The translations under genes were made by a program, and so were the position numbers. Of a stretch of DNA of 64,000 nucleotides, positions 38,621 through 55,299 are shown piece after piece. The notes under the pieces were generated by a model that searched no databases, was not told where the DNA came from, and saw nothing but the letters and a program-made list of their open reading frames with translations. The DNA is from Clostridia bacterium (lineage in GTDB: Bacteria > Bacillota > Clostridia > RGIG6154), in the NCBI GenBank assembly GCA_045589295.1, contig JAZNOU010000005.1, positions 64,001 through 128,000 on the forward strand, written 5' to 3'. Every line of letters begins with the position of its first letter. The first letter of the stretch is position 1.

Positions 38621-40906
38621 TTACAGCTTATTTCTCTGAATTTTTCCGCTTACAGTTTTAGGTAAGCTGTCACGGAACTCAACAATTCTGGGATATTTAT
38701 AAGGAGCAGTTCTTTCCTTAACATAGTTTTGAATTTCCTTTTTAAGTTCTTCGGTTGCATTTGTTCCGTCAACAAGCACAATACTTGCTTTAACAATCTG
38801 TCCCCTAACTTCATCAGGAACAGCGGAAACGCCACATTCCAAAACATAAGGAAGTTCCATAATAACACTTTCAATTTCAAATGGTCCGATTCTGTAACCT
38901 GAAGATTTGATAACGTCGTCCGCACGACCTACATACCAGAAGAATCCATCTTCATCGCGCCAAGCAACGTCACCTGTATGATAGTAGCCATCATACCAAA
39001 CCTCATCGGTTTTTTCCTGATCGCGATAGTACCCTGTAAACAATCCGCATGGTGCGCCATTTGATACATTGATACAAATTTCGCCTGATTCTGAAGTTTT
39101 TACTTCATTTCCGTCTGAATCCAAAAGTTTAACATCATATATCGGCGCAGGCTTGCCCATTGAACCGATTTTATGCGGTGCTCCTGTCATATTTCCGATA
39201 ATCATTGTACTTTCTGTTTGTCCAAAACCTTCAACAATCTGAAGTCCTGTTGCCTTTTCAAACTGGCGATAAACTTCAGGATTTAATGCCTCACCCGCTG
39301 TTGTCATATGCTGAACAGATGAAAAATCATACTTTGAAATATCCTGCTTTATAAGCATTCTAAGCATTGTAGGCGGTGCACAGAATGTAGTAATCTTATA
39401 TTTAGCAAACATAGGCAGTATATCAGATGCGTCAAATCTGTCAAAATCATATACAAAAAGTGCTCCCTCGCAAAGCCACTGACCATAGAGTTTACCCCAC
39501 ATTGCTTTTGCCCAGCCTGTATCTGAAATAGTAAAGTGAAGTCCGTCAGGGTCTACATTATGCCAATATTTTGCAGTGTGAAAATGACCTAACGGGTACT
39601 TGTAATTATGTGCCGCAATTTTTGGATAACCTGATGTTCCCGATGTAAAATACATAAGCATTAAATCATTTCCGCAAGGTGACTCTTCACTTCTGTTAAA
39701 GTGAGTTGAAAATCTTTGATATTCTTCATCAAAGGTTCTCCAACCCTCACGAGTTCCATTAACAATAATCTTATTTACAAGTTCAGGACATTTTTCTGCA
39801 GCCATCTCAACCTGATGTGAAACATCTCCATCTGCTGTACAGATAATTGTACTTACTCCCGCAGATTTGAATCTGTATTCAATATCCTTTTCAAGAAGCT
39901 GATTTACAGCAGGAATTGCAATAGCACCAAGCTTATTTAAGCCAATCATAGCAAACCAGAACTGATAGTGACGCTTTAAAATAAGCATAACTCTGTCGCC
40001 TTTTTTAATACCAAGTGATGCAAAATAGTTTGCACACTGGTTTGATGCTTTTTTAATATCTTTAAATGTAAATCTTCTTTCTGTCTTATCTCCTGCGATA
40101 TGAAGAAGTGCCAACTTTTCAGGTTCGCGGTCAGCTAAAGCGTCAATAAGATCAAATCCAAAATTAAACTTGTCCTCATTTTTGAATTTAATTGAAAGCG
40201 GTGTTCCTTTTTCATTTTCTTCAATATCTATATAGCTATTATAAATTCTTTCTTTATCATCTCTATGAATACGACCTATAATTCTTTCAGGTGATGCCTG
40301 TTTTTTATCCTCTTCTGCATCTTCGCCCTTTAATACAATAGCATAGAAAAGGCAGTCTTTTCCGTTAACCGCAATCATACCATGAGGTGTGCTGCTCTTA
40401 TAATAAATGCTGTCGCCAGGGCCTAAAACTTCTTTATGGTCGCCAATTTGCACCATTAAGTTACCTTCAATAACAATGTCACATTCCTGACCTTCGTGAG
40501 TTGTAAGCTCAATGTCTTTATTTTCTGCATTTTCATCATAAACACTTCTTACAAAAAGCGGTTCAGCAACACGGTCTCTGAAAGAATATGCCATATTGTA
40601 ATATGTCATACCATGAGCTTTTGCAATCTGCTGACCTGCACCTGCACGTGTTAATGTGTAAGACTTAAGATTAGGACTGTAACCTTCAATAATATCGGTG
40701 ACATTAACCTTAAGAGCCTGTGCACAAAGGTAGATAAACGCAAAGTTCAAGTCTTTTTCACCGTTTTCACATGCTGCATATTCCTCTGCTGTAACGCCTG
40801 TTTTTTCGGCCATAAATTCTACTGTGTAATTTTCAATTTCACGAAGCTCTCTTATACGCTCCGCCATTTCCTTGATTTTTAAATCGAGTGCGTTAAAATT
40901 ATCCAT
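38621..40906 (-). CDS. XRE-HTH/cupin domain fused to a medium-chain acyl-CoA synthetase
   Basis: N-terminal HTH and cupin (THEGQE, GDSIYYKSSTPHGM); AMP-binding motifs YFTSGTSGYPK, EGFGQTE, YHTGD and PKTVSGKI. Confidence 0.93.
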   Translation of the reverse strand: MDNFNALDLKIKEMAERIRELREIENYTVEFMAEKTGVTAEEYAACENGEKDLNFAFIYLCAQALKVNVTDIIEGYSPNLKSYTLTRAGAGQQIAKAHGMTYYNMAYSFRDRVAEPLFVRSVYDENAENKDIELTTHEGQECDIVIEGNLMVQIGDHKEVLGPGDSIYYKSSTPHGMIAVNGKDCLFYAIVLKGEDAEEDKKQASPERIIGRIHRDDKERIYNSYIDIEENEKGTPLSIKFKNEDKFNFGFDLIDALADREPEKLALLHIAGDKTERRFTFKDIKKASNQCANYFASLGIKKGDRVMLILKRHYQFWFAMIGLNKLGAIAIPAVNQLLEKDIEYRFKSAGVSTIICTADGDVSHQVEMAAEKCPELVNKIIVNGTREGWRTFDEEYQRFSTHFNRSEESPCGNDLMLMYFTSGTSGYPKIAAHNYKYPLGHFHTAKYWHNVDPDGLHFTISDTGWAKAMWGKLYGQWLCEGALFVYDFDRFDASDILPMFAKYKITTFCAPPTMLRMLIKQDISKYDFSSVQHMTTAGEALNPEVYRQFEKATGLQIVEGFGQTESTMIIGNMTGAPHKIGSMGKPAPIYDVKLLDSDGNEVKTSESGEICINVSNGAPCGLFTGYYRDQEKTDEVWYDGYYHTGDVAWRDEDGFFWYVGRADDVIKSSGYRIGPFEIESVIMELPYVLECGVSAVPDEVRGQIVKASIVLVDGTNATEELKKEIQNYVKERTAPYKYPRIVEFRDSLPKTVSGKIQRNKL

Positions 40907-40927
40907 TAAAATCCTCCTGTAAGGGAC

Positions 40928-41183
40928 AAAAAAACCCGTCCCAAAGTAATTTCTTTGAGACGAGTAAAGTCAACCCGCGGTACCACTCAAATTGCGTAAT
41001 CACGCCACTCTCGGAATCCAACAATCCCTATGCCTTAACGCAGCAATCACGGAGAGGTTCTACTTGCAAAGCGCTTTCTTCCTCCCGGCTCAGAAGCTAC
41101 AAACAAAACAGCCTTTCCTATGGCTTGCACCAACCGCCACTTCTCTTAAAAGGACCAACTGTAATGCACTCTTCGTCCATGCC
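40928..41183 (-). promoter_or_regulatory. T-box riboswitch, probable Val (GUA) specifier
   Basis: Stem I with AGAGA and GGTGCAA boxes and a GA motif; AGTA box; T-box AATTTGAGTGGTACCGCG (40993-40976); terminator CTCGTCTCAAAG/CTTTGGGACGGG plus U run. Confidence 0.9.
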
Positions 41184-41202
41184 TTTTGTTCAATTTGATG
41201 AT

Positions 41203-41231
41203 ATTATAACATTTAATTTAATTACAGTCAA
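41203..41231 (-). promoter_or_regulatory. sigmaA promoter of the T-box leader
   Basis: TTGACT-N17-TATAAT with extended TG. Confidence 0.8.
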
Positions 41232-41334
41232 GAAAATATACATTTTTGTAGTGTGTAGCTACCAAAATGTACAACGCATTAGATATTTTTACATTTTGGT
41301 ATATATAAGTTACAAAAACGTATGTTTTCTTGAC
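41227..41334. repeat. Imperfect inverted repeat with four TAC-N6-GTA boxes between divergent promoters
   Basis: Arms of about 45 bp; boxes start at 41239, 41260, 41290 and 41311. Confidence 0.85.
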
Positions 41335-41358
41335 AAAAATGTCGCATTATGCTATCAT
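41330..41358 (+). promoter_or_regulatory. sigmaA promoter of the rightward operon
   Basis: TTGACA-N17-TATCAT with extended TG. Confidence 0.75.
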
Positions 41359-41401
41359 ATCTTTATTATTTATTTTAATGTAACAAAAGGAGTCAAGGTA
41401 A

Positions 41402-41635
41402 ATGTTGTTTTCAAGCTTTACAACTAAAAACAACACCAAAGATGCAAACAGTTTTGCACCTTCTTGTTCTTCTGCCGATAAAAATTCTAATATTGTTATT
41501 TTAGCAGGCATTGCTTTTGCAGTGTCTGTTTTTTTGTCACTTATATGCTTTGACATTATATGCATTATTATTGCGCTAAGCGCACTAATTATTAAGGCTT
41601 CGGCCGTTAAACGAAAAAAGCATTTTGTTTGTTGA
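41402..41635 (+). CDS. Ile/Leu/Val-rich leader ORF (candidate attenuator peptide or small membrane protein)
   Basis: AAGGAG RBS. 11 Ile, 6 Leu and 5 Val in 77 codons. A terminator separates it from the first structural gene. Confidence 0.6.
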   Translation: MLFSSFTTKNNTKDANSFAPSCSSADKNSNIVILAGIAFAVSVFLSLICFDIICIIIALSALIIKASAVKRKKHFVC

Positions 41636-41664
41636 ATTTCAATCTAAGTAGTTGGTAATTTGGC

Positions 41665-41693
41665 GGCTTTGCTTTTTTCAGCAAAGCCTTTTT
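41665..41693 (+). terminator. Leader terminator (candidate attenuator)
   Basis: GGCTTTGCT-tttttc-AGCAAAGCC-TTTTT ends 4 nt before the GGAGG RBS of the next gene. Confidence 0.8.
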
Positions 41694-41707
41694 CTATGGA
41701 GGTAAAA

Positions 41708-42508
41708 ATGGACATCATTGACTTTCACGTGCACATATATCCTGAAAAAATTGCTGAAAAAGCAGTACAGAGTGTTGGTGATTTTTACAACTTAAAAATG
41801 AGCGGCAGCGGAACCTGTGAAACAATCTTAGATACTGGCAAAAAGATTGGTATTACATCTTACGTTGTTCATTCTGTTGCAGTTTCAGCATCTCGCGTTG
41901 AAACTATAAATGATTATATTGCATCTGAATGTAAAAAGCACAGTGAATTTTATGGATTTGGTACAATGCATGCTGACTATGATAATAAAATAGAAGAAAC
42001 CAAACGTTTTTTAAATCTTGGCTTAAAAGGTGTAAAAATTCACCCCGATACTCAGCTTTTTGATATGGATGATAAAAGAATGTTTGAACTTTATGATTTC
42101 CTGCAGCAAACCAAAACCCCCATTTTAATACACACAGGCGACTACAGATACGACTTTTCTCATCCAAGACGACTTAAAAATCTGTTGAAACTTTTTCCAG
42201 ATTTAATCGCAATAGGTGCCCACTTCGGCGGATGGTCTGTTTATGATCTTGCCCTTGAATACCTAAAAGATGAAAAATGTTACCTTGACACCTCTAGTTC
42301 ACTTCCTATGATTGGTCTTAAAAGAGCTAAAGAGCTTATAAGGCTCTATGGTGCTGAACGAATGGTTTATGGTACCGACTTCCCTATGTGGAATCCCGAA
42401 AAATCTTTAGAGGATTTCTTTAACATAGGTCTTACCGATGAAGAAAACGAACTTATTTTAAATAAAAATGCTAAGGGAATATTAAATATTAAGGAGTGTA
42501 AAAAATGA
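41708..42508 (+). CDS. Amidohydrolase_2 family metal-dependent hydrolase
   Basis: IDFHVH, GVKIHP, IHTG, AHFGG and YGTDFP motifs. ATG at 41708 after GGAGG. Confidence 0.9.
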   Translation: MDIIDFHVHIYPEKIAEKAVQSVGDFYNLKMSGSGTCETILDTGKKIGITSYVVHSVAVSASRVETINDYIASECKKHSEFYGFGTMHADYDNKIEETKRFLNLGLKGVKIHPDTQLFDMDDKRMFELYDFLQQTKTPILIHTGDYRYDFSHPRRLKNLLKLFPDLIAIGAHFGGWSVYDLALEYLKDEKCYLDTSSSLPMIGLKRAKELIRLYGAERMVYGTDFPMWNPEKSLEDFFNIGLTDEENELILNKNAKGILNIKECKK

Positions 42509-43893
42509 GAAAAATTAACACAACAGACATTACTCTTAAAAAACTTTCGGAAGAACGTGAAGTTTTGCTACTATTCCGTGAGAAAACAGCCATTGCCACT
42601 TGTGCAGATTCACTTGGAGCTGATGCTGTTGAACTCGCTCCTGTAAAAAATCTTCGTGAAGATACAATAATTTACAAAACCATCTCACAGAAAGTGCAAA
42701 ATGCAGTTGTTGCCATTCCCGTTGGCTTTTCTGTTGAAGATTTAGAAAATGCTTGGGAATGCATTAAAGATGCTAAAAATCCACGTCTTCAGATTGAAGT
42801 TCCCGTTTCTACTGTTCAGATGGAATACACATATCATATCAAATCAGACAAAATGCTTATGAAAATTGCAGAACTTATTAATGCAGCCAAAAACCTTTGC
42901 TCTGATGTTGAATTTTGCGCACTTGATGCAACAAGAGCCGATAAAGATTTTGTTATCAGTGCAATAAAAGAGGCTGAAAGTTGCGGCGCAAACATTATCA
43001 CAATCTGTGACGATGCTGGTGTATCACTTCCAGAGGCAATTGCGTCTTTAACTAAAAAAGTAAAAGATTCGGTAAAAGTTCCTGTATTCGTTCAGGTTTC
43101 TGACAAAATCAGCATGGGTGTTGCATCGGCAATAGCAGCTGTTCAAGCAGGTGCCGATGGTCTTAAATGCGCTATGGCAGGCAAAGATGCCCTTTTAACC
43201 GGCAAACTTTCTGATGCATTAAAAGCTTGTTCATCCGAAACAATGGTAGAAACTAATCTTAATGATACAAAAATCCATACAAGCATTGAAGATATGTTAG
43301 AAAGTATAAATCACCAGGAATACAGCGACGCTTCTTCTGTAAGTGAAAAAAACAAAATTCTCCTTGACAGCGACAGCTCTATTTCTCAGGTTGCACAGGC
43401 TGCTGAAGTATTAGGTTATGACCTTTCTGATTCTGATCTTGGTAATGTTCACAAAGCACTTATAGGAATTTGTGAGAAAAAAGATGATGTAGGTGCTAAA
43501 GAATTTGAGGCACTTATTGCAAGCACTGCTATGCAGGCACCATCTACCTATCATCTTGAAAGCTACACCACAACAAGTTCTAATGTATCAAGCTCAATGA
43601 GTCAGGTTACACTCAAATGCGGTGATGAAATTATGAGCGGTGTTGCAAACGGAGATGGTCCTATCGACTCTGCTTTCCGTGCAATAGAGCAGTGCATTGG
43701 TCACCACTACGAGCTTGATGATTTCCAGGTTCAGTCCGTAACTGAAGGAAAGGAAGCATTAGGTTCTGCCGTTGTAAAACTTAGAAATAACGGAAAACTC
43801 TACTCAGGTAACGGAATTTCAACTGACATTGTTGCCGCAAGCATAAGAGCATATATAAACGCTCTTAACAAAATCATATTCGAGGAGGCATAA
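42505..43893 (+). CDS. LeuA (2-isopropylmalate synthase)-like protein with degenerate active site and intact regulatory domain
   Basis: DRE-TIM barrel remnants (DATRAD, ITICDDAG) and a conserved C-terminal allosteric domain (GDGPIDSAF, STDIVAAS..AYINAL). The TLRDGEQ, HxHND and GERAGN motifs are lost. Confidence 0.85.
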   Translation: MRKINTTDITLKKLSEEREVLLLFREKTAIATCADSLGADAVELAPVKNLREDTIIYKTISQKVQNAVVAIPVGFSVEDLENAWECIKDAKNPRLQIEVPVSTVQMEYTYHIKSDKMLMKIAELINAAKNLCSDVEFCALDATRADKDFVISAIKEAESCGANIITICDDAGVSLPEAIASLTKKVKDSVKVPVFVQVSDKISMGVASAIAAVQAGADGLKCAMAGKDALLTGKLSDALKACSSETMVETNLNDTKIHTSIEDMLESINHQEYSDASSVSEKNKILLDSDSSISQVAQAAEVLGYDLSDSDLGNVHKALIGICEKKDDVGAKEFEALIASTAMQAPSTYHLESYTTTSSNVSSSMSQVTLKCGDEIMSGVANGDGPIDSAFRAIEQCIGHHYELDDFQVQSVTEGKEALGSAVVKLRNNGKLYSGNGISTDIVAASIRAYINALNKIIFEEA

Positions 43894-43894
43894 A

Positions 43895-46354
43895 ATGAAA
43901 ATTGTATTTTCAACTAAAAACGTAAATCGTGGTTCCTTCCTTGATGTTTGTCGTTATACTTATGACTACGGTTTTGCAGGGTTTGAAATTTACGATGCTA
44001 TTAAAGAACGCAAAGCTCACCACGACAGTATTTTACGTCGTGACCGTGTAGCTGATGCAAAAAGAAAACTTGTTAATCGCAATATTGCCGTTGCTGCTCT
44101 TCGTATGCCATCTCCTGTTGAAAGTGATGACACTACAGCAGAAATATTGATTAAATATGTAGATATGGCAGCAAACGCAGGTATTGAAAACGTTATTGTT
44201 CGTGTTGAAGAAAAAACGCCTTTTTATATTTTAAGCGAAAAACTTTCAGATGCAGTAAAACGTGCTGAAAAAGCTGATGTTAACATTCTTTTTGAAACTG
44301 TAGGATATCTTTCAGAAACCGAAAATGTTTTAGATATTATAAACTTCTTTTCATCTGCGGCAATCGGCGCAGCTTGGAATGTAAGAGGAACATATTTCGG
44401 TGCTGGAGAAAGTGCAGAAGCAACTATTAAAACACTCGGCGCTTACATTAAATATGTAAGACTTGGTGATATGGCCGATGGCAAAACTGTTTTGATCGGC
44501 GAAGGTACACTTCCTGTTGAAAACTTAATCAACGCGCTTTCATCACTTAATTTTGACGGTTTTATCTGTGCCGCTTGGAATGACGAAATCAACGATGCTG
44601 ATATCGTTTTAACTCATTTTGCAAACTACATTTCATCTCTTAAAAGAGAAAAGAAAAGTTATGATAAAGCATACTACAACAGAGCTAAAACAGGTACTTT
44701 TGTATGGAAAAAATATGACGTAATTGATTATACTTTCCCTGAAGTGCTTGACACAATGGCAGAAAAGTATCCTGACCAGTATGCATTTAAATACCCTACT
44801 CTTGATTACACAAGAACATATCAGCAATTCAGAAAAGATGTTGATGAATGTGCGGCAGCACTTATATCGCTTGGTGTAAAAGCAGGAGATCATGTTGCAG
44901 TTTGGGCAACAAATGTGCCTGAATGGTTTATCACATTTTGGGCTACAACGAAAATCGGTGCAGTTTTAGTTACTGTAAACACTGCCTACAAAATTCATGA
45001 AATCGAATATCTTTTAAGGCAGTCTGACACACATACTCTCGTTATGATTGAGTACTGCAAGGAAATAAATTACAAAGAAATCATTGAAGAGCTTTGTCCC
45101 GAACTTAAAAATCTTGCTCCGGGCGAACCTTTATACTCTAAAAACCTTCCGTTTTTAAGAAATGTTGTAACGGTAGGATTTTCAATGGATGGATGTCTCA
45201 CATGGGAGCAGATGCTTTCACGTTCTTCACTTGTTCCCCGCGAAGAAGTAAGAAGAAGAGCGTCACTTGTTAAACCCGACGATGTTTGTAATATGCAGTA
45301 TACATCAGGTACAACAGGATTTCCAAAGGGTGTTATGCTCACCCACAGAAACATTGTTAACAACGGCAAAACAATTGGTGACAGAATGGATTTATCAACA
45401 GCAGACCGTATGATGATCCAAGTTCCTATGTTCCATTGCTTTGGCATGGTACTTTCAATGACATCAATGATGACTCATGGTGGAACGCTCTGCCCTATTC
45501 CTTATTTTTCACCCAAATCATCACTTGCATGTGTAAATGATGAAAGAATAACCTGTTTTAACGGTGTGCCAACAATGTTTATTGCAATGTTCAATCATCC
45601 AGATTTTGCAAAAACAGATTTCTCATACATGAGAACAGGCATTATGGCAGGTGCTAACTGTCCTGCCGACCTTATGAGACGTGCAGCAGAGGAAATGAAT
45701 ATGAAAGAAATCATTTCTGTTTATGGTCAAACCGAAGCATCACCGGGTTGTACAATGGGTGAAGTTAATGAAGATCTTGACCACAGAGTTGAAACTGTAG
45801 GTAGTGCCTTCCCTGGTGTTGAATGTAAAATCATCGACCCTGAAACTGGCGAAGAACTTCCAGATGGTGAAAGCGGCGAATTTGTTGCAAGAGGATTTAA
45901 CATTATGAAGGGGTATTACAAAATGCCTGAGGCAACTGCTCAGGCAATTGACGAAGACGGATGGCTTCATTCAGGTGACATCTGTTGCAAAACCCCTGAT
46001 GGATATTACAAGGTAACCGGCAGACTTAAAGATATGATTATCCGCGGAGGCGAAAATCTTTATCCCCGTGAAATTGAAGAGTTTTATCTTACCAACCCGA
46101 AACTTCGTGATGTTCAGGTGGTTGGTGTCCCTGATGAAAGATATGGCGAAGAATGTTGTGCATGGATTATTCTTCACAAAGGTGAAACCGCTGACGAAAA
46201 TGAAATGAAAGAATTTGGTAATGCCTCTATTGCAAGACATAAAGTACCAAGATACTTTATGTTTGTAGATGAATTTCCAATGAATGCGGCAGGAAAAATT
46301 CTTAAATACAAAATGCGTGACATTTCCGCAGAAAAATTAGGCTTAAAAAAATAA
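43895..46354 (+). CDS. Xylose-isomerase-like TIM barrel fused to an acyl-CoA synthetase
   Basis: N-terminal ~250 aa AP-endonuclease-2-like barrel; AMP-binding motifs QYTSGTTGFPKG, YGQTE, WLHSGD and PMNAAGKI. Confidence 0.9.
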   Translation: MKIVFSTKNVNRGSFLDVCRYTYDYGFAGFEIYDAIKERKAHHDSILRRDRVADAKRKLVNRNIAVAALRMPSPVESDDTTAEILIKYVDMAANAGIENVIVRVEEKTPFYILSEKLSDAVKRAEKADVNILFETVGYLSETENVLDIINFFSSAAIGAAWNVRGTYFGAGESAEATIKTLGAYIKYVRLGDMADGKTVLIGEGTLPVENLINALSSLNFDGFICAAWNDEINDADIVLTHFANYISSLKREKKSYDKAYYNRAKTGTFVWKKYDVIDYTFPEVLDTMAEKYPDQYAFKYPTLDYTRTYQQFRKDVDECAAALISLGVKAGDHVAVWATNVPEWFITFWATTKIGAVLVTVNTAYKIHEIEYLLRQSDTHTLVMIEYCKEINYKEIIEELCPELKNLAPGEPLYSKNLPFLRNVVTVGFSMDGCLTWEQMLSRSSLVPREEVRRRASLVKPDDVCNMQYTSGTTGFPKGVMLTHRNIVNNGKTIGDRMDLSTADRMMIQVPMFHCFGMVLSMTSMMTHGGTLCPIPYFSPKSSLACVNDERITCFNGVPTMFIAMFNHPDFAKTDFSYMRTGIMAGANCPADLMRRAAEEMNMKEIISVYGQTEASPGCTMGEVNEDLDHRVETVGSAFPGVECKIIDPETGEELPDGESGEFVARGFNIMKGYYKMPEATAQAIDEDGWLHSGDICCKTPDGYYKVTGRLKDMIIRGGENLYPREIEEFYLTNPKLRDVQVVGVPDERYGEECCAWIILHKGETADENEMKEFGNASIARHKVPRYFMFVDEFPMNAAGKILKYKMRDISAEKLGLKK

Positions 46355-46390
46355 TTAAAATATATTTATCAACAGAAAGGAAGATAAATT

Positions 46391-47449
46391 ATGAATATCT
46401 CTATTGAAAAAACAACAGCTCCAAAAGCTATTCCTACAGAAAACTTAGGCTTTGGAAAACATTTTACAGACCATATGTTCTTAATGGACTATGACAAAGA
46501 AACAGGTTGGGAAAATGCAAGAATTGTTCCGTTCGGCAGACTTTCAATGCACCCTGCTGCAACCGTTTTCCATTATGGTTCTGAAATTTTTGAAGGTCTT
46601 AAAGCATACAGAACAGAAAGTGGTAAAGTTCAGCTTTTCAGACCTTACGAAAATGCAAAGAGAATGAATTCTTCTGCTGAAAGATTAAGACTTCCTATAA
46701 TCCCTGAAGATGACTTTGTTGAAGCAATCAAAGCGCTTGTTAAAATCGACGAAGCTTGGATTCCTAAAAACTTTGGTGAATCACTTTACATCAGACCATT
46801 CCTCTTTGGAAATGATGAATCACTCGGTGTTCACTCAATCAAAAGAGCAACATTTGTAATTATTCTTTCACCAAGCGGAAGCTACTATCCGGAAGGAATT
46901 AACCCTGTTAAAATTATGATTGAAAAAGACGATGTTCGTGCAGTTAAAGGCGGAACAGGTTATGCTAAATGCGGCGGTAACTACGCAGCATCAATCAGAG
47001 CAGGTGAAAATGCTGAACTCAAAGGCTACACACAGGTTCTCTGGCTTGACGGTGTTCACAGAAAGTACATCGAAGAAGTTGGTGCTATGAACGTTATGTT
47101 CAAAATTGATGGCGAAATTGTTACTCCTGAACTTTCAGGTTCAATTCTCCCTGGTATTACAAGAAAATCTTGCATCGAAGTTTTAAAAGACAAAGGATAC
47201 AAAGTTTCAGAAAGACTTCTTTCAATCGACGAATTGGTTGCTGCTATGGAAGCAGGTAAACTTGAGGAAGCTTGGGGTTGCGGTACTGCAGCTGTTGTAT
47301 CTCCTATCGGCAAGCTTTTCTATGACGGCAAAGAATACATTGTTAACAATAGTGAAATCGGCGAAGTTACTCAGGCTCTTTATGATGAACTTACAGGAAT
47401 TCAGTGGGGTAAAGTTGAGGACAAATATCAATGGACAGTAGAAATCTAA
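46391..47449 (+). CDS. ilvE: Branched-chain amino acid aminotransferase
   Basis: FTDHMF, HYG.EIFEGLKAY, AKCGGNYA and LPGITR motifs. Confidence 0.97.
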   Translation: MNISIEKTTAPKAIPTENLGFGKHFTDHMFLMDYDKETGWENARIVPFGRLSMHPAATVFHYGSEIFEGLKAYRTESGKVQLFRPYENAKRMNSSAERLRLPIIPEDDFVEAIKALVKIDEAWIPKNFGESLYIRPFLFGNDESLGVHSIKRATFVIILSPSGSYYPEGINPVKIMIEKDDVRAVKGGTGYAKCGGNYAASIRAGENAELKGYTQVLWLDGVHRKYIEEVGAMNVMFKIDGEIVTPELSGSILPGITRKSCIEVLKDKGYKVSERLLSIDELVAAMEAGKLEEAWGCGTAAVVSPIGKLFYDGKEYIVNNSEIGEVTQALYDELTGIQWGKVEDKYQWTVEI

Positions 47450-48129
47450 GCTACAAACGAACAACTGTATTTGCAGGTCATTACGGAAGTGGGAAAACAA
47501 ATGTTGCAGTAAACTATGCACTTTGGCTTAAAAATTTCGAAAAAAATGTTTCTGTCGCGGATTTGGATATTGTAAATCCTTACTTCAGAACAAAAGATTC
47601 TGCTAAAGTTTTAGAAAAAAGCGGCATAAAACTTATCTCTTCCGAGTTTGCAAATTCAAATGTTGACACCCCTGCCCTTCCCGGCGAGATATACTCTGTT
47701 TTCGATGACAAAACCGTTTATTCTGTTTTAGATATTGGCGGAGATGACAGAGGGGCTTTAGCACTTGGCAGATATGTCCCACATTTGCTTGAAGAAAACA
47801 ATTACGAGTTTTTATTCGTAATAAACAAGTTCAGATTTTTAACAAAAGATGCTAAAGATACAGTTGAAGTTATGAGAGAAATCGAAGAAGCTTCAAAGTT
47901 GAAATTCACAGCTATCGTTAACAATTCAAATATTGGCGAAGAAACTACAAAAGAAGATGTTTTATCATCTGTTGCTTATGCAAACGAAGTTTCTGCTATT
48001 ACGGGTCTTGAAATAAAAATGACTACAATTAAAAGTGATCTTTATGACTTACTAAAAAATGATATTTTAAACTTACAGCCTATTGACCTTTATGTAAGAC
48101 AATCCTGGCTGAGAGAGGAGCAAAAATAA
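47431..48129 (+). CDS. P-loop NTPase (MinD/CobQ-like) of unknown function
   Basis: Walker A GHYGSGKT, DLDIVNPYFR and DIGGDDRGA motifs; overlaps the ilvE stop. Confidence 0.85.
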   Translation: MDSRNLSYKRTTVFAGHYGSGKTNVAVNYALWLKNFEKNVSVADLDIVNPYFRTKDSAKVLEKSGIKLISSEFANSNVDTPALPGEIYSVFDDKTVYSVLDIGGDDRGALALGRYVPHLLEENNYEFLFVINKFRFLTKDAKDTVEVMREIEEASKLKFTAIVNNSNIGEETTKEDVLSSVAYANEVSAITGLEIKMTTIKSDLYDLLKNDILNLQPIDLYVRQSWLREEQK

Positions 48130-48332
48130 TGGCAAAAGTTACATTCAATGAAAATTTGTGTAAAGGTTGCGGACTTTGCGTTACAGCTTGTCCTAAAAAA
48201 ATCGTTGCACTTAAAAACACTTTAAACGCAAAAGGTTATCACCCTGCAGGCGTTGAAAAACAGGAGGACTGCATTGGTTGTGCATTCTGTGCTACAATGT
48301 GCCCTGACTGTGTAATTACAGTAGAAAGATAA
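48129..48332 (+). CDS. 2x[4Fe-4S] ferredoxin, delta subunit of a 2-oxoacid:ferredoxin oxidoreductase
   Basis: Two CxxCxxCxxxCP motifs. Confidence 0.95.
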   Translation: MAKVTFNENLCKGCGLCVTACPKKIVALKNTLNAKGYHPAGVEKQEDCIGCAFCATMCPDCVITVER

Positions 48333-48344
48333 GGAGGCAAAAAA

Positions 48345-49415
48345 ATGAGCGAAAAAGTATTAATGAAAGGTAACGAAGCATTAGCTGAAGCTGCTATTAT
48401 GGCAGGTTGTAAGCACTACTTGGGTTACCCAATTACCCCGCAGACAGAAATTGCGGCATATATGTCAAAAAGACTTCCAAAAATTGATGGTGGAGTATTT
48501 TTACAGGCAGAAAGCGAAGTTGCTGCTATCAATATGCTTATTGGTGTTGCATCTACCGGCAAAAGAGCTATGACATCTTCATCAAGCCCTGGAATATCCT
48601 TAAAGAGCGAAGGTATTTCATACCTTGCAGGCTGCGACCTTCCAGCACTCATCGTAAACGTTCAGCGTGGTGGCCCTGGTCTTGGTGGTATTCAACCATC
48701 ACAGTCAGACTATTTCCAGGCTACACGTGGTTTAGGTCATGGTGACTTTCATTTAATGGTTTTAGCACCTGCCTCAGTTCAGGAAATGGTTGACCTTGTA
48801 TTTAAGGGTTTTGATTTGGCTGAAAAATACAGAGTTCCTGCAATGCTTTTATCAGATGGTACAATGGGTCAGATGATGGAACCTGTATCATTGGACGCAG
48901 GCGTTATCAATAACTATGACAAATCTTGGGCAGTTACAGGTACAAACGGAGAAAGAAAACCTAACATCGTTAACTCACTTTATCTTAAACCTGAAGAACT
49001 CGAAGACAAAAACATTGAAAGATTTGAAAGATATGCTCAGATTGAAAAGAACGAAGTTATGTATGAAGAATACAAAATGGAAGATGCTGAAATCTGTATC
49101 GTAGCTTTTGGTGTTGCAGCAAGAGTTTCACAGAACGCTATTGATATCGCAAGAGAAAAAGGTATCAAAGTTGGTATGATAAGACCTATCACACTCTGGC
49201 CGTTCCCTAAAGATGCTTTAAACAAAGCAGCAGATAAAGTTAACACATTCATTTCAGTTGAACTTAACATGGGTCAGATGATTGAAGATATTCAGCTTGC
49301 TACAAAATGCAGAAGAGACGTTCTTCTTTGCAGCCGTACAGGCGGTATGATTCCTACAACTGAAAACGTTTTAGACAAGATTGAAGAAGCAGTTAAATTG
49401 GGAGGTGCAAAATAA
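48345..49415 (+). CDS. vorB: 2-oxoacid:ferredoxin oxidoreductase alpha subunit (VorB-like, 3-methyl-2-oxobutanoate type)
   Basis: KGNEA, GYPITPQ, TSSSSPG and RGGPGLG.IQPSQSDY motifs. Confidence 0.88.
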   Translation: MSEKVLMKGNEALAEAAIMAGCKHYLGYPITPQTEIAAYMSKRLPKIDGGVFLQAESEVAAINMLIGVASTGKRAMTSSSSPGISLKSEGISYLAGCDLPALIVNVQRGGPGLGGIQPSQSDYFQATRGLGHGDFHLMVLAPASVQEMVDLVFKGFDLAEKYRVPAMLLSDGTMGQMMEPVSLDAGVINNYDKSWAVTGTNGERKPNIVNSLYLKPEELEDKNIERFERYAQIEKNEVMYEEYKMEDAEICIVAFGVAARVSQNAIDIAREKGIKVGMIRPITLWPFPKDALNKAADKVNTFISVELNMGQMIEDIQLATKCRRDVLLCSRTGGMIPTTENVLDKIEEAVKLGGAK

Positions 49416-50158
49416 TGGCAGTAGTATTTGAAAAACCAAAGGCACTTACAGATGCAGTTTTGCATTATTGCCCAGGTTGTACTCACGGTATTATCCACAG
49501 ACTCGTTGCTGAAGTTATGGACGAACTTGGTATCACAGGTAAAACAATCGGTGTTGCTCCTGTTGGTTGCTCAGTTATGGCATACAACTATTTCAATTGT
49601 GATATGGTTCAGGCGGCTCACGGTAGAGCTCCTGCTGTTGCAACAGGCGTAAAAAGAGCAGACGCAGATAAAATTGTATTCACATATCAGGGCGATGGTG
49701 ACTTGGCTGCTATCGGTACTGCAGAAACAGTTCACTCTGCAGCTCGTGGTGAAAACATCACAGTTATTTTCGTTAACAATGCAATTTATGGTATGACAGG
49801 CGGTCAGATGGCTCCTACAACCCTCCCAGGTCAGGTTACACAGACATCACCTTACGGCAGAGATGTTGAAAAAGTAGGTTACCCATTAAAAGTTTGCGAA
49901 CTTTTGTCAAACGTAGACGGTGCAACATACTTAGAAAGAGTTGCAGTTAACAACGTTAAAAACATTAAAGCGGCTAAAGCTGCTATCAAAAAAGCTTTCC
50001 AGAATCAGGTTGAAGGTAAAGGTTTCTCATTAGTTGAAGTTTTATCTACTTGCCCAACAAACTGGGGCTTAGCACCTGATAAAGCTATCGCATGGCTTGA
50101 AGAAAATATGATGCCTTATTACCCACTCGGCGTATATAAGGACAAATTTGCAGAATAA
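49415..50158 (+). CDS. 2-oxoacid:ferredoxin oxidoreductase beta (TPP-binding) subunit
   Basis: YCPGCTHG, GDGD...NN.IYGMTGGQ and CPTNW motifs. Confidence 0.93.
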   Translation: MAVVFEKPKALTDAVLHYCPGCTHGIIHRLVAEVMDELGITGKTIGVAPVGCSVMAYNYFNCDMVQAAHGRAPAVATGVKRADADKIVFTYQGDGDLAAIGTAETVHSAARGENITVIFVNNAIYGMTGGQMAPTTLPGQVTQTSPYGRDVEKVGYPLKVCELLSNVDGATYLERVAVNNVKNIKAAKAAIKKAFQNQVEGKGFSLVEVLSTCPTNWGLAPDKAIAWLEENMMPYYPLGVYKDKFAE

Positions 50159-50171
50159 GGAGGAAATAGCA

Positions 50172-50705
50172 ATGAATAAACAAGTTTTAATCGCAGGCTT
50201 CGGCGGTCAGGGTATTTTGTTCTCAGGTAAATTCCTTGCATACGAAGGCTTAATTGACGGAAAAGAAGTTTCATGGCTTCCTTCATACGGTCCTGAAATG
50301 AGAGGCGGTACTGCAAACTGCAGTATCATCGTAAGCGATACAAAAATCGGCTCACCTATCGTAGATAAGCCTGATGTATTGATTGCAATGAACACACCAT
50401 CATTTGATAAGTATATAGATGCAGTAGTACCTGGCGGTCAGGTGTTTATTGACAGCGCTTTAATTGACAGAAAAGTTGAAAGAACTGATATTGAAGCCTA
50501 CTATATTCCAGCTACTAAAATCGCATCTGACGAAAATTTACCAGGACTTGCGAATATGATTATTTTAGGTATGATGATTAAAAAGTCGGGTATTATGCCT
50601 TTTGAAAATATTGAAAAAGCTTTAAATAAGGTTGTATCAGCCAAAAAAGCAAACCTTTTAGAGCTTAATAAAAAAGCAATTCAAATTGGATACGATTATG
50701 AATAA
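50172..50705 (+). CDS. 2-oxoacid:ferredoxin oxidoreductase gamma subunit
   Basis: AGFGGQG, SYGPEMRGG and ANMIILG motifs. Confidence 0.93.
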   Translation: MNKQVLIAGFGGQGILFSGKFLAYEGLIDGKEVSWLPSYGPEMRGGTANCSIIVSDTKIGSPIVDKPDVLIAMNTPSFDKYIDAVVPGGQVFIDSALIDRKVERTDIEAYYIPATKIASDENLPGLANMIILGMMIKKSGIMPFENIEKALNKVVSAKKANLLELNKKAIQIGYDYE

Positions 50706-50721
50706 TTGAGGAGGATTTCCT

Positions 50722-51273
50722 ATGAACGACCAGATTAAAGATATTGGTATGCGTCTTGCAGGTCTGCGTGACGATATGGAAATTTCTACAGCCGAAATGG
50801 CAGAAAAACTTGGTGTTGACCAGGCGACTTACGAGGCATACGAAAGCGGAGAAAAAGATTTTTCATTCAGCTTTATGTATAATGCAGCCGAAATTTTGGG
50901 CGTTGATGTTTTGGATATTATAAGCGGTGATGCACCAAAGCTTTCTATGTGCTGCATGGTTAAAAAAGGAAAAGGTTACTCTGTAAAACGCGGTCACGAA
51001 TATGACTACAAGCACTTAGCTTATACTTTCCGCGGCAAAAAAGGTGAGCCTTTCTTGGTAACAATTACTCCCGATGGTAAACCTCCCGTTATGCACGGAC
51101 ATGAAGGGCAGGAATTCAATTATGTTATTTCGGGAAAAATGATGCTCTATATCGGTGATATTTCATACGAGCTTTCTGAAGGAGACAGTGTTTATTTTGA
51201 TTCAAGTGTGCCTCACGCAGAGGTTGCACTCGGCGATAAGGAAGCTCAATTTATCGCCGTTGTAATTAAATAA
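50722..51273 (+). CDS. XRE-HTH/cupin transcriptional regulator
   Basis: HTH plus HEGQEF and GDSVYFDSSVPH motifs. Confidence 0.92.
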   Translation: MNDQIKDIGMRLAGLRDDMEISTAEMAEKLGVDQATYEAYESGEKDFSFSFMYNAAEILGVDVLDIISGDAPKLSMCCMVKKGKGYSVKRGHEYDYKHLAYTFRGKKGEPFLVTITPDGKPPVMHGHEGQEFNYVISGKMMLYIGDISYELSEGDSVYFDSSVPHAEVALGDKEAQFIAVVIK

Positions 51274-51304
51274 TAAGACACATAAACTCTAAAGGAGAAT
51301 TATT

Positions 51305-52999
51305 ATGCCAATATACGAAAAGTACGTCGGTGCTCACCGAGATGATTTCATCTCTCTCGCCGACGCACAGAAAAACTATACACTTACATATCCTGAGGAC
51401 TTTAACTTTGCATATGATGTAATTGATGAACTTGGCACAAACAAGCCTGATAAGCTTGCTATGATTTGGGTTTCCAAAGATGGTGAAGAAAAACGCTTTA
51501 CTTTCCGCGATATGATGATTTATTCAAATAAAGCGGCAAATTATCTTCACTATATGGGAATCAGAAAAGGTGACAAAGTTTTACTAACTCTTAAAAGAAG
51601 CTACTATTTCTGGTTTATAATTTTAGCTCTTCATAAAATTGGTGCTGTTGCAGTTCAGGCAACAAACATGCTTAAAGCAAAGGACTATGTTTACCGCTGT
51701 AATGCCGGCAAAATCAAAGCAGTTGTTATAACCGGCGATGGTCCTGAAACCGAGTATTTTGACGAAGGCGAACCAAATTACGAAACTGTAGAGCTTAAGT
51801 TTGTAACAGGTCACAAAAATGCAGGCGAAAGTTGGATTGACTTTGAAGCAGGCTTTGAAATGGCAAGCGACTCCTGGCAGCGTCCTACCGGTGATGCGGC
51901 TGTTATGGCTGATGATATGATGCTTATGGCATTTTCATCAGGCACATCAGGATATCCTAAAATTATAACCCACAATTTCAAATATCCGCTCGGACACATT
52001 ATGACAGGTGTTTTCTGGCACAGAGTTGTAGATGGTGGTCTTCACTTTACAATTTCTGATACAGGATGGCTTAAATCACTTTGGGGAAAAATTTACGGTC
52101 AATGGTTTGGCGAATCTGCAGTTTTTGTTTATGATTTTGAAAAATTTGATGGTGCTGATATCTTAGAAAAACTTGAAAAATACAAAGTTACAACTTTCTG
52201 TGTTCCGCCTACAATGTATCGAATGATTTTACAAAACGACGTAGAAAAATATGACCTTTCTTCCCTTGCCCATTGTTGTACTGCGGGTGAAGCGTTAAAC
52301 CCTGAAATTTATAACAAGTGGCTTAAAGCGACAGGTCATAAAATTTATGAGGGTTTTGGACAGACCGAAACAACACTTTGCGTTGCTACAATATATCCGT
52401 GGTCAGAACCTGTTCCGGGTGCTATCGGCTACCCTGTTCCAGGCTATGACGTCCACATTTTAGGTGATGATGGTGAATCACTTCCACGTGGTGCTACCGG
52501 TGAAATCAGCATCCGAGTATTAAGCAAAATGAGAAAATCCTGTGGTCTATTAGACTCATACAATTTCAGCAAAGAAGATACATTTAAAGCTCTTCACGAC
52601 GGATTTTACCATACAGGTGATACTGCTTATCGCGATGAAAAAGGAATGTTTAGATATGTCGGCAGAAATGATGATGTCATTAAATCATCAGGATACCGCA
52701 TAGGTCCCTTTGAGATTGAAAGTGTGCTTTTAGAACATCCTTCCGTATCAGAGGTTGCTGTAACAGGTGTTCCTGATAAAATAAGAGGGTTTGCAGTAAA
52801 GGCTACCATTGTTTTATCTAAAGGATACGAAGGTACTGACGAGCTTACAAAGGAACTTCAAAAATATGTTAAGGACAACACTGCTCCTTACAAATACCCA
52901 AGAGTTATTGAATATGTTGAAGCACTTCCAAAAACCTTTAATGGTAAAATAAGAAGAGCTGAAATACGAGATAACGATTCTGAAAAAACTTCGGAGTAA
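51305..52999 (+). CDS. Medium-chain acyl-CoA synthetase (MACS/AAE-like)
   Basis: PEDFNFAYDVID, SSGTSGYPK, EGFGQTE, YHTGD and PKTFNGKI motifs. Confidence 0.93.
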   Translation: MPIYEKYVGAHRDDFISLADAQKNYTLTYPEDFNFAYDVIDELGTNKPDKLAMIWVSKDGEEKRFTFRDMMIYSNKAANYLHYMGIRKGDKVLLTLKRSYYFWFIILALHKIGAVAVQATNMLKAKDYVYRCNAGKIKAVVITGDGPETEYFDEGEPNYETVELKFVTGHKNAGESWIDFEAGFEMASDSWQRPTGDAAVMADDMMLMAFSSGTSGYPKIITHNFKYPLGHIMTGVFWHRVVDGGLHFTISDTGWLKSLWGKIYGQWFGESAVFVYDFEKFDGADILEKLEKYKVTTFCVPPTMYRMILQNDVEKYDLSSLAHCCTAGEALNPEIYNKWLKATGHKIYEGFGQTETTLCVATIYPWSEPVPGAIGYPVPGYDVHILGDDGESLPRGATGEISIRVLSKMRKSCGLLDSYNFSKEDTFKALHDGFYHTGDTAYRDEKGMFRYVGRNDDVIKSSGYRIGPFEIESVLLEHPSVSEVAVTGVPDKIRGFAVKATIVLSKGYEGTDELTKELQKYVKDNTAPYKYPRVIEYVEALPKTFNGKIRRAEIRDNDSEKTSE

Positions 53000-53002
53000 A
53001 TT

Positions 53003-53698
53003 ATGATAAGTAATGAAAATTTTTATGACCGACTTGTAAAATCATTATTCCTGCTTGCAGGAGAGATAATTTTAGACAAAGAGAATACAAGCGTGCGTTT
53101 TTATGATGCCAGAAGCGATTTAAAGCCCGAAGTTTTAAGTCTTGAGGGCTTAAGAAAATTGCTTTCAGAAAAAATCATAACCGACCTTAACGGCATATTA
53201 AAATTGACATACGATGATTTCCATGCGATAAAACGTGCAACCACCTTTGCTTTCAGCGCTCAGACGCGCCCAAGAATTGTGCGACGTTATACCGCGGTAA
53301 TTTACCCCTCGGAAGATAATAACAGATTATACTTTACAGTACGTGAAACTGAAAACACCGAAAATATTATAACATTCCAGCTTAAAAAAAGTTCTGCTAA
53401 CTTTAATATTAATGATATTTTATATATTGGATACGGCAACCACTGTGTGCAGATTCACAAGGCTGATGAATGTATAAATATGTTCAGTATTTCTTTTTCT
53501 GATGCGGCTGACGTTTTCTTAAAACACAAGAATTTTGTAAGAAGCTACAAAAACTGTCTTGTAAATATGGATAAAGTCAAATGCATCGAAAACGATTTGT
53601 TTGTTATGACAAACGGTGAAGTTATTTCAATTCCGAAAAGAAGACTTAAAGAAATCAAAAACATTTACAAAGAATATGTAATATTAAACAATCAATAA
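53003..53698 (+). CDS. LytTR DNA-binding domain protein with a non-receiver N-terminus
   Basis: INDILYI...FVRSYKNCLVNMDKV....M.NGEVISIPKRR. Confidence 0.8.
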   Translation: MISNENFYDRLVKSLFLLAGEIILDKENTSVRFYDARSDLKPEVLSLEGLRKLLSEKIITDLNGILKLTYDDFHAIKRATTFAFSAQTRPRIVRRYTAVIYPSEDNNRLYFTVRETENTENIITFQLKKSSANFNINDILYIGYGNHCVQIHKADECINMFSISFSDAADVFLKHKNFVRSYKNCLVNMDKVKCIENDLFVMTNGEVISIPKRRLKEIKNIYKEYVILNNQ

Positions 53699-53725
53699 AA
53701 AAAGAGAGCATCAGCTCTCTTTTTT
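53697..53725. terminator. Bidirectional terminator
   Basis: AAAAAAGAGAGC-atca-GCTCTCTTTTTT. Confidence 0.88.
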
Positions 53726-55214: not shown

Positions 55215-55299
55215 AATTATCCCCTCTTTCTCTGTCTTTTTGTATTCTAGCATACAAAGTATCTATTGTCAAATATAAATTTTCAATAATTCCTACAAA

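Follow-up and report, generated by a model that had tools for sequence, protein, structure and literature searches.

A window of 64,000 nucleotides from a Clostridia bacterium (assembly GCA_045589295.1, contig JAZNOU010000005.1, positions 64,001 to 128,000; all window coordinates below count from its first letter) contains a divergent locus of three acyl-CoA ligases, a 2-oxoacid:ferredoxin oxidoreductase (Vor), the aminotransferase IlvE and a catalytically dead LeuA paralogue. The normal pathways to Val, Leu and Ile were not found in this genome, and the locus very probably makes these amino acids from branched fermentation acids and CO2.

In the route that we propose, other microbes would supply the branched short-chain fatty acids (isoacids). 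AMP-forming ligases, converting ATP to AMP, would turn them into acyl-CoAs, with ligase 1 taking isobutyrate and ligase 2 isovalerate; 2-methylbutyrate would be taken by ligase 3 or serve as a second substrate of ligase 1. Vor would then carboxylate each acyl-CoA to its 2-oxo acid with reduced ferredoxin and CO2, and IlvE would aminate the 2-oxo acids to Val, Leu and probably Ile. On the regulatory side, uncharged tRNA-Val would open the T-box leader of ligase 1, and the dead LeuA would bind leucine and most likely feedback-inhibit ligase 2.

An earlier note on this DNA had listed three distinct acyl-CoA synthetases, the delta, alpha, beta and gamma subunits of Vor, IlvE, a degenerate LeuA, two XRE-cupin modules and a LytTR protein. 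Family scans recovered all of these parts in place. Four more had been overlooked in the list: an amidohydrolase, a P-loop ATPase, the TIM barrel of ligase 2 and a probable attenuator in the leader of the rightward operon.

Missing biosynthetic genes and outlets

The assembly that holds the window is 1.54 Mb long and 97.4% complete. Searched genome-wide, it gave no match to IlvD or to TPP_enzyme_N/IlvB, and the controls of this search were found in 14 of 14. Candidates for the other steps fell away one after another: the sole KARI_N match, considered for IlvC, is adenosylhomocysteinase (AhcY); the sole aconitase-family match, considered for LeuC, is a 752-aa hydratase; the sole Iso_dh match is IDH-like and scores 159 bits with the LeuB model against a cut-off of 353; and a possible second LeuA elsewhere in the genome is oxaloacetate decarboxylase. 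The genome-wide check that the earlier note had called for thus bears out its expectation that ilvB, ilvC, ilvD, leuB and leuC are missing, at this level of completeness.

Outlets for the acyl-CoAs are missing as well. Neither an acyl-CoA dehydrogenase nor a butyrate kinase was found in the genome, which has one acetate kinase only, and no FabH C-terminal domain was found either. Neither BrnQ nor a Liv-type importer was found, both PF02653 permeases belonging to sugar ABC operons; no search aimed at other importers or at peptide uptake was made.

Together, the missing de novo genes, the missing catabolic and lipid-priming outlets and the starvation switches with the right codons described below argue for the anabolic direction, as the earlier note had supposed, and we regard an anabolic purpose of the locus as highly likely. 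The opposite flow, in which imported amino acids would be oxidised by IlvE and Vor, yielding acyl-CoA and reduced ferredoxin with only an incidental part for the ligases, appeals to the reversibility of 2-oxoacid:ferredoxin oxidoreductases, which run oxidatively in amino-acid fermenters, and to a kinase-like open reading frame (ORF) that adjoins one Vor locus of a class relative (L018). However, AMP-forming ligases consume ATP, the switches respond to shortage, and the dehydrogenase, kinase and importers that such a fermentation would use were among those not found; we consider it most improbable.

As a separate matter, with no FabH C-terminal domain found, the start of fatty-acid synthesis in this bacterium is unexplained.

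T-boxes and their codons

The T-box of the window controls ligase 1 only. Missed at the Rfam gathering threshold and recovered by an E-value scan, it matches RF00230 over the full length of the model (positions 1-219) at 40953-41188 on the reverse strand, with 80.1 bits and E 2.9e-16. The specifier at 41100-41098 is GUA (Val), the UGGU bulge lies at 40985-40982 and the terminator at 40965-40934; the genome carries two tRNA-Val(UAC) genes ending in ACCA, which match both GUA and UGGU. No second T-box was found before the rightward operon, either by the E-value scan or by a bulge pattern search. The T-box control implied by the earlier note is therefore real, and specific to Val, on the leftward ligase, but does not extend to the rightward operon.

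Relatives were surveyed by the bulge pattern search upstream of genes in the fetched loci, with an Infernal check of 6 out of about 175 loci; the latter returned 9 T-box matches in the 6 loci, 5 above the gathering score and 4 below. The pattern stands upstream of all 34 XRE-MACS fusions, of 68 of the 86 LeuA-like genes and of 5 of the 7 unfused ligase-2 genes, as well as of 11 of the 106 ligases fused to a TIM barrel, most of which lie inside an operon. It was seen before none of 159 other genes of these loci (39 vorB, 38 ferredoxin, 31 ATPase, 28 amidohydrolase and 23 ilvE genes).

The codons sort by gene family. T-boxes of LeuA-like genes have CUC in 65 cases, CUG in one and CCC in one, one more being unparsed, so that 66 of 68 read Leu. 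Those of ligase-2 genes (n=16, from distant lineages) have CUC, parsed in 8 and read by eye in 7, with one incomplete. MACS fusions carry AUC (Ile) in 32 cases and GUA (Val) in 5; a further set of 36 MACS genes, outside whose counts stand 7 of 40 regions with no motif match, holds 11 with AUC, 11 with GUA and 14 without a T-box. Several genomes encode both a Val-type and an Ile-type ligase. T-box specifier codons have been reported to agree with the function of the downstream gene (PMC2494555).

Several observations on T-boxes and tRNAs stand apart. Tandem XRE-MACS paralogues, one with a Val T-box and one with an Ile T-box, occur at L012:4641-9595 and in L180, L184 and L185, the L012 pair directly upstream of a Vor operon. 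The CCC and CUG specifiers belong to the dead-LeuA T-boxes upstream of L066:2125 and L104:1889, respectively, and may reflect mutation, assembly error or an alternative Leu codon. At L158:793-863, on the reverse strand, a Gut-1 RNA motif (RF01706, 61 bits) sits beside a tRNA and upstream of a Val T-box. Three further T-boxes lie in the genome of the window (C5:5109-5336, C5:145239-145487 and C21:93161-93392); the genes behind them, compared by their N-termini only, presumably resemble pheS, DAHP synthase and aspS. tRNA-Ile is absent from the assembled tRNA genes of this genome.

Ligases 1 and 3 and the pocket residue

Both MACS-like ligases have MbcS (NF047394) as their best NCBIfam model, at 438 bits for ligase 1 and 408 for ligase 3 against a cut-off of 850, and 3ETC as their best PDB match (E 4e-188 and 9.6e-188, respectively); they would work like MbcS and are not members of the MbcS equivalog. 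The 3ETC enzyme, MacsMa of Methanosarcina acetivorans, prefers 2-methylbutyrate according to PMC10455477. MbcS is described as activating 2-methylbutyrate and isobutyrate, and isovalerate poorly (PMC10026030), a profile that matches the split of T-box codons between the two ligase families. Ligases 1 and 3 resemble MacsMa and the S. aureus MbcS in their nearest structure and in the branched C4/C5 acids that they would take, but differ from both in the XRE-cupin fusion, in the Val/Ile T-box control and in having Ala or Leu where the pocket has Gly; MbcS, moreover, feeds fatty-acid synthesis, and the ligases score about half its cut-off.

When positions are numbered from the YHTGD motif of PMC10455477, the pocket Trp that this paper terms critical is conserved by alignment in ligases 1 and 3. 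The position beside it is Gly in 37 of the 37 Ile-T-box ligases read and Ala in 17 of the 17 Val-T-box ligases (three sets of 24+5, 2+1 and 11+11, Ile-type plus Val-type); it is Gly in 3ETC, Ala466 in ligase 1 and Leu in ligase 3. Judging by the alignment, we take this position to line the acyl pocket. Ala in the Val-type and Gly in the Ile-type ligases would make sense if the acid one carbon shorter is selected by a smaller pocket. The pocket alignment and a quick tree were restricted to ligases with over 480 aligned residues, namely 29 of 37 T-box ligases and those of the window. On codon and pocket residue, we predict with good confidence that ligase 1 is an isobutyrate:CoA ligase serving the Val arm. 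An additional MACS subtype, whose pocket motif differs, is present in loci L004 and L005.

The likeness to MbcS also invites a reading of the locus as a supplier of lipid primers, with IlvE and Vor running oxidatively, the ligases scavenging isoacids and both feeding branched-chain fatty acids. MbcS, the model with which ligases 1 and 3 score best, primes membrane fatty acids in S. aureus (PMC10026030), and in PMC11300592 a BCAT, a VOR and a 3ETC-like ligase of Bacteroidales are read as suppliers of branched lipid precursors, which counts for lipid priming and against amino acid synthesis here; Vor is also retained in many prototroph-like genomes. Yet the T-boxes sense uncharged tRNA, with codons that fit the amino acid expected from each acid, the genome search found no FabH C-terminal domain, and a leucine-type allosteric domain has been retained beside ligase 2. 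We judge lipid priming very unlikely.

Dead LeuA and ligase 2

In 84 of 84 aligned rows, the catalytic/metal motifs DxxLRDGEQ and HxH are missing from the LeuA-like protein. Most of its regulatory domain is conserved at 0.90-0.97, compared with 0.72-0.84 for the barrel, and the C-terminal allosteric domain is the most conserved part of the protein. It shares with LeuA (TIGR00973; 3EWB, 3RMJ) the HMGL-like barrel, the LeuA allosteric domain and, in relatives, a Leu T-box; unlike LeuA, it lacks the catalytic motifs in every row and is followed by ligase 2 rather than by leuBCD. More distant LeuA-like partners (36-46% identity) are likewise dead and likewise directly upstream of ligase 2, and the Atlas holds look-alike clusters of the protein, none of them with a name.

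Counts of such loci rest on 80 Clostridia loci kept from 356 stretches encoding relatives; where the record titles state an origin, it is ruminant hindgut. Ligase 2 directly follows the dead LeuA in 77 of the 80, and the other three end at a contig edge. Vor lies near the pair in only 5 of the 80 loci, yet VorB is present in 46 of 50 dead-LeuA genomes. In these 50, an IlvD-family protein occurs in 6 (2 of them high-scoring), and the aconitase family in 49, with a LeuC-sized ORF clear in one and up to three truncated candidates.

Ligase 2 scores 681 bits with NF009233 (PRK12583 subfamily) against a cut-off of 832 and matches no solved structure better than E 2e-79. Its T-box codons and its partner lead us to predict, at much the same strength as for ligase 1, an isovalerate:CoA ligase serving the Leu arm. 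That the dead LeuA is a leucine-sensing regulator of ligase 2 is suggested by the retained allosteric domain and the constant pairing, and on balance we lean slightly towards it.

The metal ligands of the TIM barrel of ligase 2 are lost in this lineage and intact in stand-alone forms. A split form, in which ligase 2 and a TIM barrel with intact metal ligands are separate neighbours, was seen at L153:4218-6681 and L154:4997-7571, followed in L154 by an amidohydrolase.

A probable attenuator before the rightward operon

In place of a T-box, the rightward operon has a leader with two overlapping ORFs. The longer, of 77 aa, has 11 Ile, 6 Leu and 5 Val among its residues (22 I/L/V codons) and ends with a stop codon within the antiterminator hairpin; an ORF of 77-80 aa stands in the same place in 6 of the 9 family genomes that have a close amidohydrolase. 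The shorter, of 20 aa, contains 8 Leu, 3 Ile and 2 Val, 13 in total, and has a counterpart of 14-36 aa in 6 of 6 leaders. Among 79,319 windows of 20 aa in the long ORFs of the genome, 44 hold at least 13 I/L/V.

All six leaders fold into an antiterminator of -18 to -22 kcal/mol and a terminator of -11 to -13 kcal/mol, and in all six the 5' arm of the terminator can pair alternatively with a strand that closes the long ORF. Both leader strands co-vary between the two genera, and a matching -35/-10 upstream of the leader is visible in relatives too. Sigma70-like sites numbered 51, against 44.9 expected in shuffles.

A ribosome finishing the leader ORF would cover the antiterminator strand and cause termination, and one stalled on Ile, Leu or Val codons would let the antiterminator form and open the rightward operon. 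The leader is thus probably an attenuator responding to branched-chain amino acids (BCAA). It resembles that of the S. aureus ilv-leu operon, which has a leucine-rich leader peptide (PMC5794164), in its BCAA-rich upstream ORF and alternative terminator and antiterminator. Its points of difference are the length of the leader (77-80 aa) and the short Leu-rich ORF that overlaps it, the replacement of a T-box in one lineage and the control of a salvage operon.

Organisation of the locus

Features and coordinates are given in Table 1. The rightward genes form one tightly packed unit (41708-53698), in which neighbouring genes are spaced by -19 to +36 nt. Pairwise identities of 48%, 25% and 25% set the three ligases apart, and the adenylation P-loop and GQTE motifs are intact in all of them.

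Table 1 Features of the locus, in window coordinates
Feature	Position	Strand	Support
Ligase 1, XRE-HTH-cupin + MACS/MbcS-like AMP-forming acyl-CoA synthetase fusion	38621..40906	-	HTH_19, Cupin_2, AMP-binding (Pfam)
T-box leader, Val specifier	40934..41188	-	RF00230
Sigma70-like promoter of T-box/ligase 1 unit, 11/12, extended -10	41203..41231	-	Consensus match only
Sigma70-like promoter of rightward operon, 11/12, extended -10	41330..41358	+	Consensus match; relatives
Leader ORF, 77 aa, unannotated	41402..41635	+	Strong ribosome-binding site; relatives
Overlapping +1-frame Leu-rich ORF, 20 aa	41442..41504	+	Weak ribosome-binding site; relatives
Hairpin + U-tract within leader (pause site or first terminator)	41503..41530	+	Conserved
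Antiterminator (5' strand from 41613) / terminator (41665-41688), mutually exclusive	41613..41688	+	Folding
Amidohydro_2 metallohydrolase, first gene of rightward operon	41708..42508	+	Pfam
Dead LeuA paralogue	42505..43893	+	Motif loss; PF08502 E 2e-32
Ligase 2, xylose-isomerase-like TIM barrel (degenerate) + PRK12583-like acyl-CoA synthetase	43895..46354	+	Pfam, NCBIfam
IlvE branched-chain aminotransferase	46391..47449	+	NF009897, TIGR01123
ParA/CbiA-like P-loop ATPase	47431..48129	+	Pfam
Vor delta, 2x[4Fe-4S] ferredoxin, 67 aa	48129..48332	+	Pfam
Vor alpha, VorB subfamily	48345..49415	+	NF005507 535.7 bits
Vor beta, thiamine pyrophosphate (TPP) + Fe-S motifs intact	49415..50158	+	Pfam, motifs
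Vor gamma	50172..50705	+	PF01558
Stand-alone XRE-cupin regulator	50722..51273	+	Pfam, blastp
Ligase 3, MACS-like acyl-CoA synthetase, no T-box	51305..52999	+	Best PDB match 3ETC
LytTR-domain protein	53003..53698	+	PF04397 E 1.4e-8

Vor alpha exceeds the cut-off of the VorB model (535.7 against 399 bits), with beta, gamma and delta adjacent; from this context we infer a preference for branched 2-oxo acids and a reductive direction in vivo. IlvE passes two equivalog cut-offs (NF009897, 481 against 307 bits; TIGR01123, 403 against 250) and is the only close copy in the genome, blastp having found no paralogue. In the class, most Vor loci have the P-loop ATPase gene immediately before that of the Vor ferredoxin; the ATPase has unnamed look-alikes in several phyla in the Atlas; it could be a maturation or regulatory factor of Vor. 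The stand-alone XRE-cupin protein and the N-terminus of ligase 1 share 39% identity. An amidohydrolase lies near the dead-LeuA pair in 20 of the 80 loci, one being a distant match of 28%. The LytTR gene, found in close relatives only and in one of the 80 loci, probably encodes an accessory protein.

Around the locus, HisZ and a short HisG are fused in one 523-aa ORF (window 36664-38235, reverse strand), the two being separate genes in genome G002; the his operon comes next downstream of ligase 1, from which a YerC/TrpR-like gene separates it. On the other side, a beta-lactamase-fold serine hydrolase (window 53724-55253, reverse strand), whose best NCBIfam model is 3-succinylated cholic acid synthase at 184 against a cut-off of 800, converges on the rightward operon. 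Two genes that we take by their N-termini to be metY-like and metA-like are inserted between the ligases and ilvE-vor in L004, L005 and L007. The genome of the window has an aromatic-acid counterpart of the same design on contig C2 (L025:3541-10316), which speaks for the proposed route and is made of an acyl-CoA ligase, IorA, IorB and a PaaK-like ligase, with a 143-aa ORF nearby.

Distribution in the class

Class-wide tallies cover 120 genomes, each at least 97% complete, one of 121 (G156) being omitted. Vor occurs in 87 of them, a MACS ligase in 75, ligase 2 in 59, an IlvD-family protein in 70 and LeuC in 73. Every one of the 59 genomes with ligase 2 encodes a MACS ligase and Vor as well, and Vor accompanies MACS in 71 of 75 genomes. 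The full kit of Vor, MACS ligase and ligase 2 is thus present in 59 of 120, of which 26 lack both LeuC and a high-scoring IlvD.

The earlier note had suggested correlating the cluster with isoacid requirement; taken as loss of the ilv and leu genes, the outcome depends on the marker chosen. Vor alone fails: an association with loss of ilvD that was apparent in 41 relatives (19/21 vs 13/20) did not hold in the 120 genomes. Ligase 2 as a marker of leuC loss fails likewise across the whole family (p 0.35). The correlation does appear with the dead-LeuA type, where 2 of 20 keep LeuC (11 close ligase 2 homologues plus 9 dead-LeuA loci) against 31 of 39 other ligase-2 genomes, and with multiple MACS ligases, since at least two are present in 32 of the 40 Vor genomes without high-scoring IlvD and in 10 of the 47 with it. 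We read the salvage route as a cheap option in many prototrophs, on which some lineages came to depend.

Counter-evidence and the place of ligase 3

A number of results weigh against the proposed route or against parts of it. Vor is widespread in the class, and its presence does not follow the loss of IlvD (53 of 87 Vor genomes keep an IlvD-family protein, p 0.41). Because 33 of the 59 ligase-2 genomes retain LeuC, the kit is not solely a replacement. The genomes compared are mostly draft assemblies, relatives are not statistically independent, and the 50 dead-LeuA genomes carry no completeness figure. None of the three ligases passes a curated NCBIfam cut-off. The T-box of the window scores 80.1 bits, below the Rfam gathering score of 93, and shuffled sequences fold as well as its stem I does (z -0.40). 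In the attenuator, the I/L/V content of the long leader ORF (0.27-0.32 vs 0.24 for the genome background) is a modest excess, and counts of synonymous and non-synonymous changes favour neither of the overlapping ORFs as the selected frame. As to the pocket, the match of Ala and Gly to codons may be one evolutionary event, since the five Val-type ligases in the quick tree form a single clade (99 SH-aLRT); Ala also occurs at this position in 6 ligases without a T-box, and positions 469 and 566, tried as further Val/Ile markers, failed in a larger set and were dropped. Finally, the genome has two MACS matches in total and no Gly/Ile-type ligase, and ligase 3, with Leu in its pocket, co-exists with Val- and Ile-type ligases in genome G008.

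The last points concern ligase 3, and they raise a partial version of the scheme, in which the Leu and Val arms hold, ligase 3 with its XRE-cupin protein activates propionate, a thio-acid or the like, and a second activity of ligase 1 or peptides provide the Ile. Besides its pocket Leu and its company in G008, ligase 3 has no T-box, forms a separate clade in the quick tree and is missing from the locus of genome G003. On the other hand, it is the only MACS match in genome G112, which has the remainder of the kit and in which searches found neither IlvD nor LeuC, and a branched substrate is therefore favoured; here it is also co-transcribed behind the Ile-rich leader. We find this partial version quite possible, and it is compatible with the proposed route as a whole, since only one assignment changes. 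That ligase 3 replaces the Ile-type ligase is an idea weakened by G008, where both occur. Ligase 3 as a 2-methylbutyrate ligase is a tentative assignment, reached by elimination only.

The suggestion in the earlier note of one ligase per acid therefore holds as a family pattern, with Leu T-boxes on ligase 2 and, on two MACS subtypes frequently present in one genome, Ile and Val T-boxes. At this locus it is borne out only in part, by ligase 1 as the Val type and ligase 2 as the Leu type, and less so by ligase 3, which has no T-box, a different residue and the G008 distribution.

Discussion

Rumen and gut anaerobes have been known for decades to require isoacids, a need that underlies isoacid feed supplements. 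Allison and co-workers reportedly described how rumen bacteria and methanogens make Val, Leu and Ile by reductively carboxylating isobutyrate, isovalerate and 2-methylbutyrate. Methanogens reportedly also have an anabolic 2-ketoisovalerate oxidoreductase (VOR) with neighbouring acyl-CoA synthetases. According to PMC10658910, methanogens draw on 2-methylbutyrate for Ile and on isovalerate for Leu.

The route proposed here follows the same sequence of acyl-CoA formation, ferredoxin-dependent carboxylation and transamination. Unlike the rumen and methanogen route, known from labelling and extracts, it comes with candidate genes and T-box control. Vor resembles the methanogen VOR in an alpha subunit above the VorB cut-off and in its ligase neighbours; it differs in its four-gene clostridial form, the P-loop ATPase, the presence of IlvE in the operon, the tRNA-sensing control and the dead LeuA. 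Our literature search, which covered few subscription papers, returned no article that names the ligase genes of bacteria or describes their control by T-boxes, and some of this may already be in print. The chemistry is long known; the bacterial gene assignments did not turn up in the literature searched.

A bolder extension, which we hold only tentatively and find rather doubtful as a whole, is that gut Clostridia share a widespread, undescribed, CO2-fixing "isoacid code". Each acid would have one ligase, wired to the tRNA of its product and tuned by the Gly/Ala switch; LeuA would moonlight as the leucine-sensing subunit of the isovalerate ligase, kept dead after the loss of leuBCD; and in the present lineage the Leu T-box would have been replaced by a dual-frame attenuator reading Leu and Ile separately.

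For the long-known cross-feeding of isoacids in the rumen and gut, the locus provides testable genes, among them three purifiable ligases with specific substrate predictions. It also offers a candidate case of a biosynthetic enzyme retained purely as an allosteric sensor. As a marker set, its genes could predict the isoacid needs of uncultured Clostridia, which would help to culture them and correct false calls of BCAA auxotrophy in metabolic models.

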